DNA of 64,000 bases, from the sequence record MF158046. One strand, given 5' to 3'. This document shows positions 1,694-58,838 of the stretch, piece after piece. The DNA is from Shigella phage Sf23. A program made the position numbers and the translations under genes. Within the stretch, counting starts at the first letter, position 1; the number at the start of each line of letters is the position of its first letter. The notes under the pieces were generated by a model that did no database searches, had not been told where the DNA came from, and saw only the letters and a list, made by a program, of their open reading frames with translations.

Positions 1694-2212
1694 TTAATAA
1701 CCTCGGTCCTGACGTGCGAAATTTTCAGCATTTTTCAGGTAATAAAGTTTAAAGATTTCTTCAGCTGTAAGACCAAGACCCTGGAACATATTCAGAACGA
1801 AATGAAGAATATCAATCATTTCAAATTTAATTTCTAACTGGTCTTGCGGAGACAAATCAGTAATCAGAGTTTCACGACGCTCACCATGCTGCGACTTCCA
1901 AGGTTTCCATACAGCAGATGCGTCTTTTTCACCATTACTCATACCACCAAGAGAAGTCAGAAGTTCACGGAATTCATCGTCAATATAATCTTTCTGATTA
2001 CGCAACCAATCAACAACTTCACCGGCAGTAGCCAAGTCATCAGGATGACGATTATATTCAGGTTTATCTTTAGCTAAACGAATTTGCAGAGATTTCTGCA
2101 TGTCAAGCATTACCTGCAGCGGGTCTTTTTCATCACCGAGAATATCCCAATATTCATTTTGAGCTTTATCAGCGCCTTCGATCAGTTGACTACATTCGTT
2201 GAAATGTGGCAT
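1694..2212 (-). CDS. 56: dCTP pyrophosphatase (dCTPase/dUTPase) gp56
   Basis: 172 aa, matches T4 gp56 size and position between soc and 61; MazG-like acidic motifs (EFRELL, EEIFKLY). Confidence 0.9.
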   Translation of the reverse strand: MPHFNECSQLIEGADKAQNEYWDILGDEKDPLQVMLDMQKSLQIRLAKDKPEYNRHPDDLATAGEVVDWLRNQKDYIDDEFRELLTSLGGMSNGEKDASAVWKPWKSQHGERRETLITDLSPQDQLEIKFEMIDILHFVLNMFQGLGLTAEEIFKLYYLKNAENFARQDRGY

Positions 2213-2272: not shown

Positions 2273-2285
2273 ATAAGGAGGACAT

Positions 2286-2486
2286 ATGGTACAAAAATTA
2301 ATGGCACTTGTTAATGCCATAAAAGGTAATAAAAAACGTATAGCTTTTACTATTTCTGCTATGGTAGGAATTTTACTCTGGAACTTTATTCTATCACCTG
2401 TTGCAATTGCGCATGGTATTAATATTCCAGTAGTTACTCTTGATACATTTGTAGATTTAGCATTTGCTTTAGTTGGGTTAATTTAA
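2286..2486 (+). CDS. candidate small hydrophobic protein encoded antisense to the gene array (66 aa)
   Basis: Plus-strand ORF exactly filling the 56-61 intergenic gap; AAGGAGG 6 nt before ATG; predicted TM segments. Overlaps a minus-strand middle-promoter-like element, so could be spurious. Confidence 0.3.
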   Translation: MVQKLMALVNAIKGNKKRIAFTISAMVGILLWNFILSPVAIAHGINIPVVTLDTFVDLAFALVGLI

Positions 2487-3511
2487 ATCTTAGCATATTT
2501 AGATAGCCGCATTTTAGCCATCAACCCCTGGGCAATATTATTTTTCATATATTCCATAATTTGTTCAGGGGTTGCACCTTCCTTTCTAATCATATCATTA
2601 ACATCTTTTGATTTCCAGGGAGATTTATCCCAAAACATAACCCTTTCTCCTGCATCAACTAATTTAGTCATTCGCTTAATAGTGTCAGGATGACGAGGTT
2701 CATTATCTAAGACCCACACACGCCTATCTTTAAATGGAACAACTTCTAGGTCTAATTGACCACCCGTAATAGCTATACCATTTTCAATAAAAAGCGAATC
2801 TATAGGTCCTTCTAGAACATATACATCACCATCTTTGACTCGTTCGACTCCATAGATTTTTGTTGCCTCAGGATAAGCTTTGATGGTGATATATTTTTGA
2901 GGAGCATCTTTCTTTAATGCACGTCCTTGAAAAGACTCAGCTTTTCCGTTAGCATTATAAATTGGAATAACAAGACGAGGCTCAGGTGTTTCCTTTTTAT
3001 ATGTTCCTGGAGCTATACTATTAACTAATTTAGGCCATTCAGTTGTAAACCAAAGATATTTCCATTTATCCTTTGGAATACAACGAGCTTTTACATATTT
3101 TATAATTGGATGGTCTTCCGCCAGTTTATCTAATCTAACACACGACGGAAGAGATTTAATTATTTTCTTCTCAGGTTGTTTAGGAAGTTCTTTAGGTTTT
3201 TCTACTGGACGACTTTTACCTTTTTCTTTTCTTATTTCAAAGATATACTCACGATATAAATCGGGTTCAAACTCCTTTAAATATATTCCGATTGGTGCAT
3301 GATAGTTACAGTTATAACAATGAATATTTCCTTCATTATTATCACCATAATACCATCCACGAGCTTTATTATGATCGGTTTTTGAATCTCCACAAACAGG
3401 GCATCTAAACCGCAATTTAAAAGTTGAACTATTGTTTACTTGTGTGAATTTAGGTAAATGAGCTAATGCACGATACGCAAACTCATTATCAATCCAAGGT
3501 ATTGATGACAT
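2483..3511 (-). CDS. 61: DNA primase gp61
   Basis: 342 aa as in T4 gp61; N-terminal zinc ribbon CPVCGDS...CYNCNYH; TOPRIM-like core; synteny with 41. Confidence 0.92.
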   Translation of the reverse strand: MSSIPWIDNEFAYRALAHLPKFTQVNNSSTFKLRFRCPVCGDSKTDHNKARGWYYGDNNEGNIHCYNCNYHAPIGIYLKEFEPDLYREYIFEIRKEKGKSRPVEKPKELPKQPEKKIIKSLPSCVRLDKLAEDHPIIKYVKARCIPKDKWKYLWFTTEWPKLVNSIAPGTYKKETPEPRLVIPIYNANGKAESFQGRALKKDAPQKYITIKAYPEATKIYGVERVKDGDVYVLEGPIDSLFIENGIAITGGQLDLEVVPFKDRRVWVLDNEPRHPDTIKRMTKLVDAGERVMFWDKSPWKSKDVNDMIRKEGATPEQIMEYMKNNIAQGLMAKMRLSKYAKI

Positions 3512-6962: not shown

Positions 6963-7307
6963 TTAAAAGAATTTAAATTTTTTCTTTGACCTTTTATTAA
7001 ATGCATCTTGTAGTTGCATTGTAATACATTTTTCTACATGAGGAGCTAACTCAGCTTTTCTTTCTTGGTCAAGAACAGCAAAGTCCATTACGACTTTTCC
7101 ATCAACCCAATCTAATTTTGTCACATACACAATGTGTGTAGAACCATCTTCTAGTTTAATGACAATCTCCTGGATAACATTTTCCATGGCAGATTTAATT
7201 ATCTTAAGAGATTCATTAAAAAGACGTTCTTTTCTTTCTTCTTCCCCCTCCGAAGAGGGGGATTCATCGATAATTTCTAGATCTAAATCTAAATCATCTT
7301 TATTCAT
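6963..7307 (-). CDS. 40: gp40 head vertex assembly chaperone
   Basis: Positional equivalent between 41 and uvsX; 114 aa from the internal ATG (track ORF extends to 7325); acidic N-terminus. Confidence 0.6.
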   Translation of the reverse strand: MNKDDLDLDLEIIDESPSSEGEEERKERLFNESLKIIKSAMENVIQEIVIKLEDGSTHIVYVTKLDWVDGKVVMDFAVLDQERKAELAPHVEKCITMQLQDAFNKRSKKKFKFF

Positions 7308-8481
7308 TAAATTCTTCCATATCACTTAACTGCTCGAGGTCAGTTTCTAAATCAGCAGCTGATTTACTTTTACTTTCTGGAGATTTAAATTTTTCAACCT
7401 TTGAGTTAATTAATTCATCAACTTCAGCTTCAACAATTTCATTACTATCAATAGCACCTAACTGATAAGCGCGTTTAATAGCATCTCGGAATGGTTGATG
7501 CTTAAATAAAGGACCCCAGAATGTAGTGCAATTGGTATCTTTTGCACGCCAAGATTTTTCTTCGCGAATCATCTCGCCGGTTTCTTCGTCAAGAAATTCA
7601 CGAGCATACCAACCATTCTTAGGTTTTACTACAAATCCTAATTCTAGAGCCATATCTAACAATCCAGAATAAGGATCGATACCACCGTCAAATTTAACAT
7701 CAATAAAGAATTTACTTTTTTCTTTAACGGTACGAGATTTTTCTACATTTAGAACAAATTGATACCCCTGAAGATCAGAACCATCTTTAATCTGACGCTT
7801 ACCGATAATGAATACGGTATCAGCCGAATACATTACGCCTGTACCACCTGTCATCACGGTTTTACTAAACATTTCAATTGTTTCAATTGTATGGTTAACC
7901 GCAACGCATGGAATATTTTTAATGCTAAAATAAGGAGTAACAATACGAAATAATGACTTCAGTGATTTAGCACGAGTCATATCTGCCACAGATTTTTCAT
8001 TCAAGGCGTCTTCCGTTTCTTTCTTAGAAGCCATATTACCGATTGAGTCGATGAATACAATAACCTTTTCACCACGCTCAATAGCTTCAAGCTGATTCAC
8101 CATATCAATTTTCAGCTGTTCAACTGACTGGATTGGCGTATGAATTACTCGTTCCGGGTCAACTCCCATGGATCGCAAATAAGCTGGAGTAATACCAAAT
8201 TCACTATCATAGAATAGACAAACCGCGTCAGGATATTTGTTCAAATATGCCGCAACCATAGTCAAAGACATATTTGATTTAAAGTGTTTAGAAGGCCCTG
8301 CGAAAATAGTTAAACCAGACTGCATACCGCCATCAATCGCACCAGAAATAGCAATATTCAGCATTGGAATTTTTGTACGGATTACATCCTTTTCATTAAA
8401 GAATTTAGATGTAGTCAGTTCAGCAGTCATTTTAGAAGTGGAAGCTTTAATCAAACGGGATTTTAAATCTGCAATAGACAT
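7300..8481 (-). CDS. uvsX: UvsX recombinase (RecA-like)
   Basis: 393 aa; Walker A GPSKHFKS, RecA-fold motifs; matches recalled T4 UvsX N-terminus. Confidence 0.95.
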   Translation of the reverse strand: MSIADLKSRLIKASTSKMTAELTTSKFFNEKDVIRTKIPMLNIAISGAIDGGMQSGLTIFAGPSKHFKSNMSLTMVAAYLNKYPDAVCLFYDSEFGITPAYLRSMGVDPERVIHTPIQSVEQLKIDMVNQLEAIERGEKVIVFIDSIGNMASKKETEDALNEKSVADMTRAKSLKSLFRIVTPYFSIKNIPCVAVNHTIETIEMFSKTVMTGGTGVMYSADTVFIIGKRQIKDGSDLQGYQFVLNVEKSRTVKEKSKFFIDVKFDGGIDPYSGLLDMALELGFVVKPKNGWYAREFLDEETGEMIREEKSWRAKDTNCTTFWGPLFKHQPFRDAIKRAYQLGAIDSNEIVEAEVDELINSKVEKFKSPESKSKSAADLETDLEQLSDMEEFNE

Positions 8482-8558
8482 TCATTTTTTCCATAGGCAT
8501 CATTATATTTTCCTCACTGGTTAAAGATAGAGTAATTATAACACAATAAATTTAGGCA

Positions 8559-9407
8559 TTAATCAACTGCTATTGGATGAATAGCATTAAACTTATGAAA
8601 TGCTTCTGATTTTTCTTTACGTGAAACGCACATGCGAAGAACCTTTAATGGCTCGTCTTCTTCACCCAACGATTTTCGTTTTTCAATATTCGACGTTTTC
8701 CAACGAGCTTGCTCTGGAAACTCTCTATTGATTTGCTCAAGCGCTCTATTATGTTTAGAATTACTACGAATTGAACTACACCCACCAGGAGCTTGCGCTT
8801 TTCCAGATACAACCAGATATTTGAACAAGGCCAAATGCGGATAACCTTGATTAATTAAATTGAGAAATGCATACATATCTTCGCACAAATCAATTTTTCC
8901 ATACCCAATTTGTTCTGTCGTAAGTTTTCCAAGGTCATACCATGTATTCGTGAATCCATATGAATTTTCACGATAATTACCCCAAGATGAAGTAATTTTA
9001 AAAATTGGTAGGCGAGCATGACCGTGATAATACCCGCAATCCATGGCATCTTCGACGTATTGAATCAATTCATAGAACTGTTCATGAGTCAATTGATTGA
9101 CTTTATCCACGCAACGACGGTCATCTCTTTTTCGCATTGAACTCATACGAATAGTAGTATCATCGTCAATCATCCAGATTCGTTGGCCTGCATACATATC
9201 AGTAATTGCTTTACGAGTACCGGCAATTCCATTTACGTCATCAGGAATAGTTATAATTTTAGCTCTAGACCCATAGGCATCATAATAAGCTTTTTCTTCA
9301 TGTTCACGCACTACAATATGGGGTTCATAATCAGTCGGAAACATATCAAGGGCAGAAACTGCCCCGACACGCTGATAACTTGGAATTACGAATTGAATCA
9401 TTTCCAC
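8559..9407 (-). CDS. DNA glycosyltransferase at the beta-gt locus (not T4 Bgt-like; T2/T6-type beta-glucosyl-HMC-alpha-glucosyltransferase is a candidate)
   Basis: 282 aa (T4 Bgt is 351 aa); DxD-type motif MIDDDTT; located between uvsX and 42 where T4 has beta-gt. Confidence 0.55.
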   Translation of the reverse strand: MEMIQFVIPSYQRVGAVSALDMFPTDYEPHIVVREHEEKAYYDAYGSRAKIITIPDDVNGIAGTRKAITDMYAGQRIWMIDDDTTIRMSSMRKRDDRRCVDKVNQLTHEQFYELIQYVEDAMDCGYYHGHARLPIFKITSSWGNYRENSYGFTNTWYDLGKLTTEQIGYGKIDLCEDMYAFLNLINQGYPHLALFKYLVVSGKAQAPGGCSSIRSNSKHNRALEQINREFPEQARWKTSNIEKRKSLGEEDEPLKVLRMCVSRKEKSEAFHKFNAIHPIAVD

Positions 9408-10138
9408 TCACCTTTATAGTCTTTTTTCACAATATGAGTTTCTCCAGTATTCCACCAATGATCAACCAAGTAAAAATGACGAGAATATACATGAAGACTT
9501 CCGACATTCCATATAATAGAACCTGCTTTATACTGACGAGTTGAATCGCCTGCATTCAAATCAGATACTAATTTATCTAATACGTATTTTTGCCATGCAT
9601 AATCATTACGGAATCCGAAGACCACGTCATTTGAGCGCATGCTTACTACTGCATTGACTTTCTTATCACGAATCAGGTACTGTACTGTATTAGTACACAT
9701 GAAATCTGACATACCATCTTTATTGTAATCAAATTGCATGGATGGACGAGTATAAATCATGATACCACGTCGAGAATCAGGATTTTGACCAAGTTCAGCT
9801 AAACACATATCATACTGGGCATAGTTATCTTCTGACCAAATAGCCCAACCATAATTCGAGTTAATTTCGCCTTTAGAAGATGCTACCTGCTGCCAAATCT
9901 TTGGTGTTTCACCTGGAATATCTTTAACAAACAAACTCTTAGATTTATACCATTCAAGTTCGCGCTGAATGTATTCATCATTAAGAGCGCCAAAAATAAA
10001 CGGTTCATCTGCTACAAATGATGCGCCAATAATTTCAATAGTTTTAACACCGGTTTTATCAACTACGAAATCTTTTTCTTTTAATGCAAGCCCCAAATGA
10101 AGACGGATTTCTTCAACTGTCATAGAGTCACTAATCAT
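9398..10138 (-). CDS. 42: dCMP hydroxymethylase gp42
   Basis: 246 aa as in T4 gp42; thymidylate-synthase-like fold motifs; synteny. Confidence 0.95.
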   Translation of the reverse strand: MISDSMTVEEIRLHLGLALKEKDFVVDKTGVKTIEIIGASFVADEPFIFGALNDEYIQRELEWYKSKSLFVKDIPGETPKIWQQVASSKGEINSNYGWAIWSEDNYAQYDMCLAELGQNPDSRRGIMIYTRPSMQFDYNKDGMSDFMCTNTVQYLIRDKKVNAVVSMRSNDVVFGFRNDYAWQKYVLDKLVSDLNAGDSTRQYKAGSIIWNVGSLHVYSRHFYLVDHWWNTGETHIVKKDYKGEWK

Positions 10139-10145
10139 TTAAACC

Positions 10146-10295
10146 TCAATTGATACATTCATATTTAACTTGTAACAGTAATAAGCTCCAACCTAAAATA
10201 ATAGTTGGAATCATAAGAGGAACCGTTACACTATAGTATATACTTATTATAATCATCAAGATTAAAAGCAACACTGTTATAATTTTGCTTTTCAT
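10146..10295 (-). CDS. small hydrophobic membrane protein (49 aa)
   Basis: Hand-translated ORF MKSKIITVLLLILMIIISIYY...; ATG overlaps imm stop (ATGA). Confidence 0.4.
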   Translation of the reverse strand: MKSKIITVLLLILMIIISIYYSVTVPLMIPTIILGWSLLLLQVKYECIN

Positions 10296-10543
10296 TCCTT
10301 CTCTCTGATGATAATTACCTGATTTGGTTGTGCAGACTTTTTAGTTTCACCCGCAATTGACCAAATAAATGTAATAAACCAACCAATAATTGACCAGTTA
10401 AACAGTAAAGATGTGAAAAAGATTCCTACTGTCGATTTTGACCCACGCATCAAGGCGATAAACCATGGAAGCATGTATATAATAATAGCCAACACACCTG
10501 AAACTAAAACCATAAAAATTGAACCTGCTACTAAAGTTTCCAT
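10292..10543 (-). CDS. imm: Imm, immunity to superinfection membrane protein
   Basis: 83 aa, two TM helices, position between 42 and 43 as T4 imm. Confidence 0.8.
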   Translation of the reverse strand: METLVAGSIFMVLVSGVLAIIIYMLPWFIALMRGSKSTVGIFFTSLLFNWSIIGWFITFIWSIAGETKKSAQPNQVIIIREKE

Positions 10544-19820: not shown

Positions 19821-20836
19821 TGTGTTGCCTCTACATATAGCTGATTCGCATATTGAATAAGTGCTTCACGGTCAGAATCAGTGATGTCTGGAATTGCATT
19901 AATGTATTCTTCCATCAACGTCTGAAGAGATTGAACTTCAACTTCTTCACTTTCATCTGACTCGACAGAGTTATCAATTTTTGACACAACTCGTAATGAA
20001 TGCACAACTTTCTCTAGTTCAGATTCGAACTTCGTCAGATTTTTGTCTACTTCAGTTACTATAACACGTACTGATAGATTTGTAAAATCTTTATAGTCAA
20101 TTTTTCCTTTAAATGGATAATGAATTCTACGATGCCAGGTAGTATTGTTTGGAATAAATTCCATTCGTTCTGTTTCTGTATCAAACATCCAGAACCCACG
20201 AGGGTCATTCTCGTCACCTGCAGTTAGTGTCCATGGTGTCCCAATATATCTAACGTTAGCAGCCTCAGAGATAGTATGGAAGTGACCAGACCACACTTCT
20301 TTATAAGTCTTAAGGAAATCAGGTTCAAGACCATGAGATTTCATTCCTTTATAAAAATAAAATCCATTCAGTTCCCAGTGACCAACACAAAAAGAAGCAG
20401 ATGAAGTTTTGATGTGTTCAAGAATTTCACCAGTATTTTCTTCACACATCCAAGGAATTAAATCAATTAAACATCCGTCAAAATCTACTGTAGTAGGCTT
20501 ATCATATACTTTAACATTAGGATATTTAGCCAAAAGCTCAGTAGAAGCATTTGGATGCATTACATTTTTGTAGTGAAGATCGTGATTTCCTACAATAGTA
20601 TGTAGGGTAATACCAGCATCATCAAGCATTTGAACTATTTCACGAGCAAACTCCATAGTTTTATGCGTGATCGCTTTTCGCACATCAAAAATATCACCGT
20701 ATTGAATCCATACCGTAATTCCATTTTTCTTAGAATATTCTATCGCTTGCTTAATTCCATCAATTTGAATACCGCGAATCCACTCATCATCAGCTTTAAC
20801 GCCTAAATGCCAATCACCTAAATTTAAAATTTTCAT
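19817..20836 (-). CDS. 47: recombination nuclease subunit gp47 (Mre11/SbcD-like phosphoesterase)
   Basis: 339 aa as in T4; calcineurin-like motifs (DWH, GDIFD, GNHD, GHFH). Confidence 0.93.
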   Translation of the reverse strand: MKILNLGDWHLGVKADDEWIRGIQIDGIKQAIEYSKKNGITVWIQYGDIFDVRKAITHKTMEFAREIVQMLDDAGITLHTIVGNHDLHYKNVMHPNASTELLAKYPNVKVYDKPTTVDFDGCLIDLIPWMCEENTGEILEHIKTSSASFCVGHWELNGFYFYKGMKSHGLEPDFLKTYKEVWSGHFHTISEAANVRYIGTPWTLTAGDENDPRGFWMFDTETERMEFIPNNTTWHRRIHYPFKGKIDYKDFTNLSVRVIVTEVDKNLTKFESELEKVVHSLRVVSKIDNSVESDESEEVEVQSLQTLMEEYINAIPDITDSDREALIQYANQLYVEATQ

Positions 20837-20993
20837 ATATCAAGAACCGTCATTGAAATGCAAAATAAAATTATTGAAATAAACCCATCTGGTGTGCTAA
20901 AGAACCCAATCCAACATGCTCTAGTGAATAGATAAAATGCGAGAAAAAGTATCACATATCCAAGAAATATCATTATATCAAACTCCGTATAAA

Positions 20994-21016
20994 GCTAAAG
21001 GGCCGAAGCCCTTTAT
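20994..21016 (-). terminator. hairpin terminator after a-gt
   Basis: AAAGGGCTTCGGCCCTTT overlapping the a-gt stop. Confidence 0.55.
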
Positions 21017-22215
21017 TTTGTAATAATGTCAAACTGTTCTTTAAAGCAGAAGCTTGAATCTTGGTGCTGATACAAAAATTCATATGCTTTTTCTCGCTCA
21101 CGGTCATAAAGAGTTCGGTCAGATGACAGTTCTTTAATACGTTCAAATGTTGATTCCATGTCATTTTCATCAAACCAAATGATACCGCTATCATGCGAGG
21201 TCAAAGGAGTATTATCAACACGGAATTTTAAATTTTCGCCAGTAGATTTCCAAAATACTGGAATTGTTCCACATGCACCAAGCTCGAGATGAGTATATTC
21301 TAAAGAACGTTGTAGATATTTTTTATCCAACTTACTCAACTGATAACCAAAACCGGATTTACTCATACGTTCAAGCATTTCGCTATTTACATAACGGTCA
21401 AGAATTTGCGTTGGCAAATTAGGAGCAATTTTAATTTGGTCTACTTGATGAAGACGATAATACTCGTATGGAATTCCTTTTTCTTTAATAGGAATGAACG
21501 CTGGAGAACGTTCCAGACCTTCCATAATAGTACTTAGTCCTGCAGGTTTAAGATGTTTTTCGTGAAAATCAAACATCTGATAAAAACCTTTCCATGTAGT
21601 CGTACGACCAATCCAACGGTTGATATTCATGTTAATTTCAGAAACATCTTTCCAGTAAGTTGACCGAACCTTCGCAATATCCATAGGAGGCTGAAAGTTA
21701 TATACGGTCGGTGCTTCTTCAATATCATCAAACAGAGAAACAGTTTCTGGATACCACTCTTTCATCAGAACTTTATTAAAATCACCATTATCAGAATGGC
21801 TAAAAATAACATCAGCTCGACGAACAGTTTCTTCTAATCCCAAATTTCGACGCAAAGAAAGAGAAGAATGGTCATGTTGATAAACTACAACACGAACAGA
21901 AGGTTTAATGTTATCAATAATTTTTTTATAGTTATTAATAGTGTCTTCTTCAACCGAAGTAGCAGGAACTGAATTGATAATTAGAATATCACAATCATTT
22001 ACCAGCTTAAATGTTTTATCATATTCTTTTGCCAATAAAACCGGAATTGAAAATGATTTATAATCATGCGCGCAATTACGAGTAAATGATTTATCTTTAG
22101 CATAAACCAAAGTTACTTCATGACCATTTTTAATAAACCAATCACGTTGCTCGAGTGAGAATTTTGTTACACCACAACCTTCAAGACCTCGAGCCATAAA
22201 AATACATACTTTCAT
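21013..22215 (-). CDS. agt: DNA alpha-glucosyltransferase
   Basis: 400 aa as in T4 a-gt; N-terminus matches recalled T4 AGT (CIFMARGLEGCGVTKFSLEQRDWFIKNGH). Confidence 0.9.
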   Translation of the reverse strand: MKVCIFMARGLEGCGVTKFSLEQRDWFIKNGHEVTLVYAKDKSFTRNCAHDYKSFSIPVLLAKEYDKTFKLVNDCDILIINSVPATSVEEDTINNYKKIIDNIKPSVRVVVYQHDHSSLSLRRNLGLEETVRRADVIFSHSDNGDFNKVLMKEWYPETVSLFDDIEEAPTVYNFQPPMDIAKVRSTYWKDVSEINMNINRWIGRTTTWKGFYQMFDFHEKHLKPAGLSTIMEGLERSPAFIPIKEKGIPYEYYRLHQVDQIKIAPNLPTQILDRYVNSEMLERMSKSGFGYQLSKLDKKYLQRSLEYTHLELGACGTIPVFWKSTGENLKFRVDNTPLTSHDSGIIWFDENDMESTFERIKELSSDRTLYDREREKAYEFLYQHQDSSFCFKEQFDIITK

Positions 22216-22268
22216 TTAATATCCTCTTTGTTTTGGTTTATTTTACCAAAAATTTATAAAGCAATATA

Positions 22269-22282
22269 GGAGCCGAAGCTCC
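22269..22282 (-). terminator. hairpin (UUCG loop), possible terminator/RNA stability element
   Basis: GGAGCTTCGGCTCC; weak T tract. Confidence 0.4.
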
Positions 22283-22458
22283 TATCCACATAATACGCCA
22301 TACAGAGGCTCATTAGAACTTTTAAATTTTATGCGCTTATATGTTATAGTTCCTTCTGCTTTAGCTTTATCATGAGACTCTTTAAAGCGTCTCATCATTT
22401 CCTCTTTAGAGGAACGAATTTTATTATAATCTATTTCAGAAGTCTGGGTGTTCATCTT

Positions 22459-48359: not shown

Positions 48360-48833
48360 TTATTTGAACGATTTAACGTACTGAATAGAACCCTTACTAT
48401 TCACAAAGGCAATTTTACCATTTTTATTATACATGGTAGCAGTACGCTGATAACCATAGGTTTGTTTACCAGATTGATAACCAACTAATGCAAAATTATC
48501 TTCACCCATTTTATTCTGTTTAGCGCGAATGCGTTCATGACCATGTGCCATAAGAACCTTAGCATCACCAGTTGCAATGGATCGACGAGTTTTTTCATCT
48601 TCAACTGCATTAACAAAGTCGTCAAATGAATCAAATTTAGCATGAGATTTATTATACAATTTTCCATCTACTGCATAATTATATCCCTGTACATCCATTT
48701 CAACTTCTGTACCATCATCCAATACAGCAGTAATTTTTTGACCTTTTTTAAATTTCAAAAGATCAGTAAAAGATTCAGCAATAATTTGAGAATTAATAGC
48801 TGCTTCAGTGATAAATTCTTGATATGTTTTCAT
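48360..48833 (-). CDS. internal-protein-like capsid protein with capsid targeting sequence (157 aa)
   Basis: N-terminus MKTYQEFITE matches T4 IP capsid-targeting consensus with I-x-E prohead-protease site; basic body. Confidence 0.6.
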   Translation of the reverse strand: MKTYQEFITEAAINSQIIAESFTDLLKFKKGQKITAVLDDGTEVEMDVQGYNYAVDGKLYNKSHAKFDSFDDFVNAVEDEKTRRSIATGDAKVLMAHGHERIRAKQNKMGEDNFALVGYQSGKQTYGYQRTATMYNKNGKIAFVNSKGSIQYVKSFK

Positions 48834-57084: not shown

Positions 57085-57342
57085 TTATTTTAAATCTTCT
57101 AATCGTTTCTTCATCTTAGAACCATTTTTAGCGATTTCTCCTGCGTCAGAGCATAATGCTAAAAGTGCTTTAACTTTAGTTTGGTCTCCTTTAAAAGACG
57201 AAGGATCGACTGCAGCAGCAAGTTCTTTAATACGAGAGAAAAGACGCTCAGCTTCAGCTAAAGCCATTCCAAGCTTTACTTCCATACCATGAGAAGATTC
57301 AGTGATAATAGTTTCTGTAGCAAACTCTTTATAAGTTTTCAT
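57085..57342 (-). CDS. internal-protein-like capsid protein at the ipI locus (85 aa)
   Basis: N-terminus MKTYKEFATETIITE (CTS-like, I-x-E site); adjacent to 57B where T4 carries ipI. Confidence 0.6.
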   Translation of the reverse strand: MKTYKEFATETIITESSHGMEVKLGMALAEAERLFSRIKELAAAVDPSSFKGDQTKVKALLALCSDAGEIAKNGSKMKKRLEDLK

Positions 57343-58113: not shown

Positions 58114-58838
58114 TATAGTACCTTTAGTGTATTTTTAATTTTAGAAAAAAGTTCTTCAAGAGAACCATCGTTTGTAATTACTAAATCACCATCACGAATT
58201 GGCAATCCAGCTTCTGTAATATGTGTATCATTGGATTTTTGACCAGGACGAACTACATGAATTACTGTAGCACCCATCGCCCTAGCCGCATCCATTTCAT
58301 GATCTTGACGAGTATCAGGAACGATATAATAATCATAACCTGAGTTAAATTTATCAAGATAATCTAAAGCAAATAATTTTACCCAGTACATGCGGTCGAA
58401 GTTATTAACAATCAAATCCGTACCTAGGGCTTGCATCAGACGACGGACTGACCATTGATCTTCAATATTATTTATAACGTCAATAATCTTGTTAAATGCT
58501 ACGGAATTAACTGATTCTTCTCCTTCGTCATCAAAAACAAACACACCTTTAATTGGGCTTTTACCATTAAGATAGCAAAATGCTTGTTCCATAATCGCGA
58601 TTACTTCTGATTTAGTCAGATTTAAATTAGTCTCACGATCATAGTCAATTCCTTCAAACTCTTTACGAGTTAAGCAAGGATAGTCAGTGTTTGCTGCAAA
58701 TACTCCCCATGCATAAGCCAATGCATCCTTAATAGGACCAGCAAGTTGGTATTTAACTGCAGAATAATTGCTCATGATAAAATCAGCAGTAGTATCTTTT
58801 CCACTACGCTTTACACCGCTTAAAAAGATTAGTTTCAT
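58113..58838 (-). CDS. 1: deoxynucleoside monophosphate kinase gp1
   Basis: 241 aa from ATG MKLIFLSG (T4 gp1 is 241 aa); P-loop GVKRSGKDT; track ORF has an upstream non-ATG start. Confidence 0.9.

Follow-up and report, generated by a model that had tools for sequence, protein, structure and literature searches.

The gene between uvsX and gene 42 in the window, by which we mean the whole 64-kb stretch of phage DNA analyzed here, very probably encodes a beta-alpha-glucosyltransferase of the T2/T6 type (ba-gt, also called ggt). Acting together with the alpha-glucosyltransferase a-gt, it would build alpha-gentiobiosyl-hydroxymethylcytosine (hmC). The first-pass annotation had proposed T2/T6-like gentiobiosylation by a DxD-type glycosyltransferase distinct from the T4 beta-glucosyltransferase (Bgt) and working with a-gt. 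This proposal is borne out by a full-length match to the T2 and T6 enzymes (98.9% identity to each, 280/280 residues), by the absence of similarity to Bgt, and by LC-MS of near-identical phages. This gene has been described before, along with its product and distribution, and the finding is right but ordinary. Identity, fold, motifs, and gene set come from the present analysis; the chemistry and the phenotype are taken from published relatives.

Locus and identity of the ba-gt gene

The window comes from the genome of a Tequatrovirus, a T4-like coliphage. Its first 25 kb are 98.3% identical to phage Sa45lw, and its last 25 kb show 95-98.6% identity to other Tequatrovirus records over most of their length; none of the records found was identical to it. 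The ba-gt gene (8559..9401, minus strand) has uvsX as its downstream neighbor (7300..8481, minus strand; 90.5% identical to T4 UvsX by tblastn) and gene 42, encoding dCMP hydroxymethylase, as its upstream neighbor (9398..10138, minus strand; 97% identical to T4 gp42, PHROG 160). The order uvsX, ba-gt, 42 is the same in T2, T6, and AR1, and between uvsX and gene 43 the window holds only ba-gt, 42, imm, imm.1, and small ORFs. As the first-pass annotation stated and the T4 record confirms, T4 carries its 351-amino-acid Bgt at the syntenic place. The T4 gene segA, which lies between uvsX and b-gt in that phage, is absent from 8482..8558 of the window, and mobB, located beside a-gt in T4, is absent from 20800..22300.

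The six-frame ORF list of the window contains a 282-amino-acid frame with a GTG start (8559..9407, minus strand), which had initially been taken as the protein. The ORF is real and its placement between uvsX and 42 was right, but its start most likely needs correction: the predicted coding sequence is 8559..9401 (minus strand), 280 amino acids long, and begins at ATG 9401 rather than GTG 9407. On the coding strand, the upstream sequence reads AAAGGTGAGTGGAAATGATTC. The translation initiation region (9402..9413, minus strand) includes the Shine-Dalgarno sequence AGGTGA at 9408..9413 as well as the GTG itself at 9405..9407; AGGTGA sits 6 nt ahead of ATG 9401 and has zero spacing to the GTG. In addition, ATG 9401 overlaps the stop codon TGA of gene 42 as ATGA, and the 280-amino-acid start is the one annotated for ba-gt in AR1, T2, QOTSP, BGP, EL, Geo, and Solly. 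The Shine-Dalgarno spacing and these annotated homologues lead us to prefer ATG 9401. Residues are numbered below on the 280-amino-acid protein, in which the motif MIDDDTT spans residues 77-83.

A scan of 8300..10400 for promoters and terminators returned sites no more often than shuffled sequence did. The sole terminator-like match in this interval, where about one is expected by chance, lies at 9349..9365 (minus strand), within ba-gt codons 13-21, and consists of a G+C-rich hairpin with a T-rich run after it (GGGGCAGTTTCTGCCCT TGATATGTTT). In the T6 records, for which the first 60 nt were compared, the sequence of this region is mostly kept.

The encoded protein is 100% identical to AR1 YP_009167855, annotated as "b-gt: beta-glucosyl-HMC-alpha-glucosyltransferase". 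Comparison with the T2 ggt product gives three substitutions (R11H, H106R, and P251S), and comparison with the T6 record MH550421 gives Y40N and D55G together with a stop at codon 10 in the T6 record. The protein matches PHROG 842 (beta-glucosyl-HMC-alpha-glucosyltransferase) with an E value of 2e-89 over profile positions 3-269 of 270. Its residues 5-209 also match the complete Pfam profile PF20691, TAGT (positions 2-205 of 205), with 39.1 bits against a gathering cutoff of 27.5. A scan of NCBIfam found no family for ba-gt or for a-gt, and a scan of IMG/VR for related loci returned five near-identical ones.

TAGT stands for TET-associated glycosyltransferase. The window protein has the family-invariant residues R11, D80, D175, and G207, but it differs from the general family description in two respects: it would act on alpha-glucosyl-hmC supplied through gp42 and a-gt instead of lying beside a TET/JBP-type dioxygenase, and it extends about 70 residues past the C-terminal end of the Pfam domain. 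With the T2 and T6 ba-gt it shares its length of 280 amino acids, the position between uvsX and 42, the ATGA overlap with gene 42, and the partner a-gt; from these it differs by allele only.

Fold, predicted active site, and rival activities

To place the enzyme structurally, we scanned 1.84 billion representative sequences with HMMER and recovered 2143 family clusters (50% identity clusters) at E values up to 1e-3. Together with the window protein, 136 of the 2143 clusters were aligned (n = 137; 17-64% identity to the query), and this alignment yielded an AF2 model with a pLDDT of 94.5 and a pTM of 0.92. This model replaced an earlier one built from a 10-sequence alignment (pLDDT 69), which was already GT-A-like. 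In the model, the window protein has the GT-A fold with a conserved DxD motif, in keeping with membership of the TAGT family. Its closest matches are GT2-type enzymes, Foldseek yields the same set, and neither T4 a-GT nor b-GT is among the structural matches listed for it. Searching the PDB by sequence with the single protein gave chance matches only, and the family profile found one weak GT2 match (9jma_A, E 0.23), which we used for motif alignment only.

Four columns of the 137-sequence alignment are invariant: R11, D80, D175, and G207 (137/137 each). Nearly so are D79 (135/137), R212 (134/137), and D81 (130/137), followed by E174 (107/137); positions 106 and 251 are variable. The codons for D79, D80, and D81 (9159..9167, minus strand) encode the GT-A DxD motif, which is predicted to bind the metal and the diphosphate of UDP. 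It directly follows beta-strand 74-78 in the AF2 model and aligns with LDDDD of AvpGT (9jma_A). The MIDDDTT sequence singled out in the first reading of this DNA as a DxD-type motif is thus present, and the conservation of its three aspartates shows that it did not arise by chance. R11 (codon at 9369..9371, minus strand) belongs to an N-terminal I-P-S/T-Y-x-R motif that aligns with PTYNR of 9jma_A and is predicted to bind the nucleotide sugar. The E174-D175 pair (codons at 8877..8882, minus strand) forms an "ED" motif, which we consider a candidate for the catalytic base of an inverting GT-A enzyme.

For the TAGT family, neither a solved structure nor mutagenesis was found, and we propose the residue roles by analogy only. 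In the mechanism we propose, ba-gt would be a small GT-A enzyme of the DxD type, presumably metal-dependent and most likely inverting. D79-D81 would hold the metal and the diphosphate of UDP, R11 would lie in the nucleotide-sugar site, and D175 of the E-D pair may serve as the general base, a role consistent with a beta-linked product. The GT2-type inverting GT-A enzymes among its closest known counterparts (AvpGT, 9jma; TarP, 6h1j; TarS, 5tze; RmlT, 8bz4; BcsA, 4p00) are only 8-15% identical to the window enzyme, and its acceptor, a sugar on DNA, differs from theirs.

Could the protein instead be a functional counterpart of T4 Bgt that has diverged in sequence and places a single beta-glucose directly on hmC? 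It fills the genomic slot of T4 b-gt, several database records name the gene "b-gt" or "putative beta-glucosyltransferase", and both enzymes share a setting of hmC-containing phage DNA and form a beta-glucosidic bond. However, the protein shows no similarity to the 351-residue Bgt, let alone the full-length homology that the first-pass annotation had set against its own reading: the best blastp match has an E value of 2.5 over 10 residues, a family HMM scores -0.6 bits, and HHalign gives a probability of 0.1%. A tblastn search of the window with T4 Bgt likewise gave no match, whether at E values up to 1e-3 or up to 10. The fold class differs as well: T4 Bgt is a GT-B enzyme (PMC13216743), and the two Rossmann domains of that fold are not found in the window protein, which the AF2 model places in GT-A. 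Bgt acts on bare hmC, whereas enzymes of the window type extend an alpha-glucose, and beta-glucosyl-hmC was undetected in phages with ba-gt (PMC13390438). Because the protein is unrelated to the GT-B enzyme, we expect no beta-glucosyl-hmC in the phage DNA, and we regard a Bgt equivalent as extremely improbable.

The first-pass annotation had also allowed for another sugar, such as the arabinose of RB69-like Mosigvirus phages, which would make the modification a nonglucose one. The TAGT family is large and diverse, with 2143 clusters at 50% identity and donor specificities that are mostly untested, and the RB69 arabinosylation cluster fills the region from uvsX to gene 43, around a 42-like gene. 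Moreover, the RB69/Mosigvirus arabinosyltransferases (gp3 and gp46:47, the latter near the syntenic position) likewise build mono- and disaccharides on a modified cytosine. These enzymes, however, are GT-B-like (PMC6024577, PMC13326640) and attach a different sugar to a different base, 5-hydroxy-C (PMC13390438, PMC13326640, PMC6024577). The window enzyme shows no similarity to RB69 ORF003c, ORF046c, ORF047c, ORF050c, or ORF052c; in profile comparisons with the ba-gt family, ORF003c, ORF046c, and ORF047c scored -0.9 bits or below by hmmsearch, and HHalign gave a probability of 1.4% for ORF003c. RB69-type sugar-nucleotide genes are missing at the window locus. Whereas the RB69 gp42 homologue makes 5-hydroxy-dCMP (PMC13390438), the window gp42 is a T4-type hydroxymethylase and not a 5-hydroxy-dCMP synthase, being only 25% identical to the synthase homologue RB69 ORF048c against its 97% to T4 gp42. 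Finally, relatives with a 99% identical enzyme bear a glucose disaccharide (PMC13390438). With a T4-type gp42 and no resemblance to the RB69 candidates tested, arabinosylation or the transfer of any other sugar has a negligible chance of being correct.

Pathway partners and the predicted DNA sugars

The a-gt gene and the hmC synthesis genes (those for gp42, gp56, and gp1) co-occur with ba-gt in the window. The a-gt gene (21013..22215, minus strand) encodes a DNA alpha-glucosyltransferase of 400 amino acids (PHROG 2888, E 4.5e-222); tblastn matches it over its full length without stops, so the first-pass description of it as intact stands. It is the T2 allele: tblastn identity is 99.5% to the a-gt of T2, against 91% to that of T4/T6. 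Gene 56, for dCTPase, lies at 1697..2212 (minus strand; 98.8% to AR1 gp56), and gene 1, for dNMP kinase, at 58116..58838 (minus strand; 97.9% to T4 gp1), both by tblastn. The gp56 dCTPase keeps unmodified dCTP from phage DNA, gp42 makes hm-dCMP, and gp1 phosphorylates it. Across these 64 kb of a genome of about 167 kb, tblastn found one ba-gt, one a-gt, and no b-gt. On this count we rejected the idea of a further glycosyltransferase copy in the window.

In the proposed pathway, gp56 and gp42 would convert dC to hydroxymethyl-dC in the nucleotide pool, and after replication the a-gt product would add an alpha-linked glucose to hmC in DNA. By analogy with its relatives, ba-gt would then move a second glucose from UDP-glucose to the 6-OH of the first, in beta linkage, to yield alpha-gentiobiosyl-hmC.

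Published measurements on close relatives allow a more quantitative prediction. Ten Tequatrovirus phages with a-GT and TAGT and without b-GT were analyzed by HPLC/MS, and all contained 5-hmdC, alpha-glucosyl-hmdC, and alpha-gentiobiosyl-hmdC, with no beta-glucosyl form (PMC13390438). Group iv (Solly, TB37, QOTSP, NR1, CP, Some, and EH2) had about one-third hmdC and two-thirds gentiobiosyl-hmdC, with mono-glucosyl at background only, and group iii (EL, BGP, and Geo) showed an intermediate pattern of about 1:2:2 (PMC13390438).

We compared the window alleles with those of five of these Durham genomes (Solly, QOTSP, EL, BGP, and Geo). Solly differs from the window in ba-gt by H106R and QOTSP by D24N and H106R, with two a-gt differences in each case. 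EL, BGP, and Geo carry eight ba-gt differences (I50V, M89I, R95K, C97R, V101I, H106R, A202S, and Q203H), and the a-gt of EL and Geo, with 34 and 35 differences respectively, is the T4/T6-type allele. The Dam-like methyltransferase gene that marks group iii has no homologue in the window, as in group iv. Since both transferases lie within one or two residues of those of Solly and QOTSP, we expect the group iv pattern. From this we infer that the phage DNA most likely contains about one-third bare hmC, about two-thirds gentiobiosyl-hmC, and little mono-alpha-glucosyl-hmC, which would make it T6-like rather than T2-like. The quantitative side of this prediction draws on two reference phages, and a few substitutions or differences in expression can change the ratio.

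The main competitor to a T6-like pattern is that the enzyme is only weakly active in this phage, leaving DNA like that of T2, with mostly mono-alpha-glucosyl-hmC and a few per cent gentiobiosyl-hmC. The window a-gt is, after all, the T2 allele at 99.5% identity, its ba-gt is three residues off that of T2, and PMC11078745 quotes T2 itself at 70% alpha-glucosyl-hmC and 5% gentiobiosyl-hmC. Against this, Solly and QOTSP also have the T2-type a-gt (two differences) and a ba-gt one or two residues off, yet LC-MS finds about two-thirds gentiobiosyl-hmC in them. Of the T2-specific changes, R11H alone falls on a conserved site, a position invariant in 137/137 sequences, and the window has R11. Its H106 is the T6 state as well. 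We therefore consider weak activity unlikely and retain the T6-like prediction.

The difference between the T2 and T6 DNA sugar patterns was first described around 1960, and the alleles at this locus offer a possible reason for it. Both T2 records carry R11H in ba-gt (MH751506, positions 2286-3128 of the locus excerpt; AP018813, positions 2283-3125), and R11 is present in the ba-gt of the window, T6, AR1, Solly, and QOTSP. Between T2 and Solly, R11H and P251S are the sole differences in ba-gt, and a-gt differs by two residues. Nearly equal enzymes thus accompany 5% gentiobiosyl-hmC in T2 and about two-thirds in Solly, which makes R11H a plausible cause of the low T2 value. Extending this reasoning, we suggest with somewhat less than even confidence that the ba-gt allele largely determines the ratio of gentiobiosyl- to mono-glucosyl-hmC in T-even phages. 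On that proposal, the T2 enzyme would be hypomorphic via R11H, and the window phage, combining a T2-type a-gt with a consensus (R11) ba-gt, would be mostly gentiobiosylated, as T6 is. If true, this would account for the T2/T6 difference in simple molecular terms.

Experiments with T6 mutants bear on the same step. According to its authors, a T6 delta-ba-gt mutant has alpha-glucosyl-hmC only, "presumably in 75% of the cytosines" (PMC11078745). DNA of a T6 delta-g-gt mutant frees glucose under the BapA glucosidase, whereas wild-type T6 DNA does not (bioRxiv 10.64898/2026.02.25.707755).

The two public T6 genomes each have a different lesion in ba-gt. In MH550421 (positions 2138-2980 of the locus excerpt), CAG is changed to TAG, creating an amber at codon 10, and the product is annotated as 261 amino acids from Met21. 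In AP018814 (positions 2135-2974 of the locus excerpt), an in-frame 3-nt deletion in GATGATGAT reduces DDD to DD. Stock mutations, sequencing errors, or tolerated variants could each account for these lesions.

Distribution and encounters with host defense

A tblastn search of 50,697 phage records found ba-gt in 687, with 471 at 90% protein identity or above, mostly annotated with the same function. A second group, at 64-66% identity, comes from phages of Klebsiella, Enterobacter, and Citrobacter. T4-type Bgt at the same threshold of at least 90% identity occurs in 29 phage records. The first-pass annotation had called the enzyme at the b-gt locus "different". It does differ from T4 Bgt, but with 471 records against 29 it is not unusual. 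The vast majority of phages with such enzymes have either a-GT or b-GT plus TAGT, and a-GT is combined with b-GT in only 6 of 753 genomes, those of T4 and its close relatives (PMC13216743). The pair a-gt and ba-gt is the majority state in Tequatrovirus; T4 is the exception, and the window is typical.

In other genera, a TAGT homologue (47-66% identical to that of the window) adjoins a T4-type b-gt homologue (about 49-53%) instead of pairing with a-gt. Examples are Citrobacter phage Merlin (20815-21888 and 21894-22721) and Serratia phage Muldoon (21229-22263 and 22314-23159). This arrangement, the pairing of TAGT with b-GT also noted in PMC13216743, suggests that disaccharides are built on beta-glucosyl-hmC in these phages.

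Database names for ba-gt are inconsistent and include "b-gt", "putative beta-glucosyltransferase", "glucosyl transferase", and "hypothetical protein". Conversely, the genuine T4-type b-gt of RB55 is labeled "beta-glucosyl-HMC-alpha-glucosyl-transferase", and gp42 is named "thymidylate synthase" in RefSeq.

The predicted sugars of the phage, alpha-glucose and gentiobiose on hmC without beta-glucose, bear on how it would behave toward modification-dependent defenses. They are of use in annotation and in choosing phages for therapy or restriction studies. The first-pass annotation had stressed sensitivity to host type IV restriction. The sugar pattern does matter for host defense, but the clearest documented effects of the second glucose concern the glycosylase and glucosidase systems Brig1 and BapA rather than type IV enzymes. 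GmrSD targets alpha-glucosyl-, beta-glucosyl-, and gentiobiosyl-hmC alike (PMC13216743), and the gentiobiosylated Durham phages were all susceptible to BrxU (PMC13390438). Brig1 cuts out alpha-glucosyl-hmC, and T6 DNA withstands it in vitro; T6 is nevertheless sensitive to Brig1 in vivo, presumably before the second glucose goes on (PMC11078745). Compared with the wild type, the T6 delta-ba-gt mutant shows greater sensitivity to Brig1, which also degrades the mutant DNA in vitro (PMC11078745). BapA cannot strip glucose from gentiobiosyl-hmC (bioRxiv 10.64898/2026.02.25.707755).

The window also encodes internal head proteins. In the slot of T4 ipI, between trna.4 and 57B, there is an 85-amino-acid internal head protein (57085..57342, minus strand; PHROG 3499) that starts with the capsid-targeting sequence MKTYKEFATE and has no similarity to T4 IPI. 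This slot is relevant here because T4 IPI inhibits GmrSD (PMC13216743). For T4 ipIII, tblastn found no match in the 64-kb window. Adjoining denV, a 157-amino-acid internal virion protein (48360..48833, minus strand; PHROG 3155) begins with MKTYQEFITE and matches T4 ipII only weakly, mainly in its N-terminal part (33% identity, E 1.7e-4).
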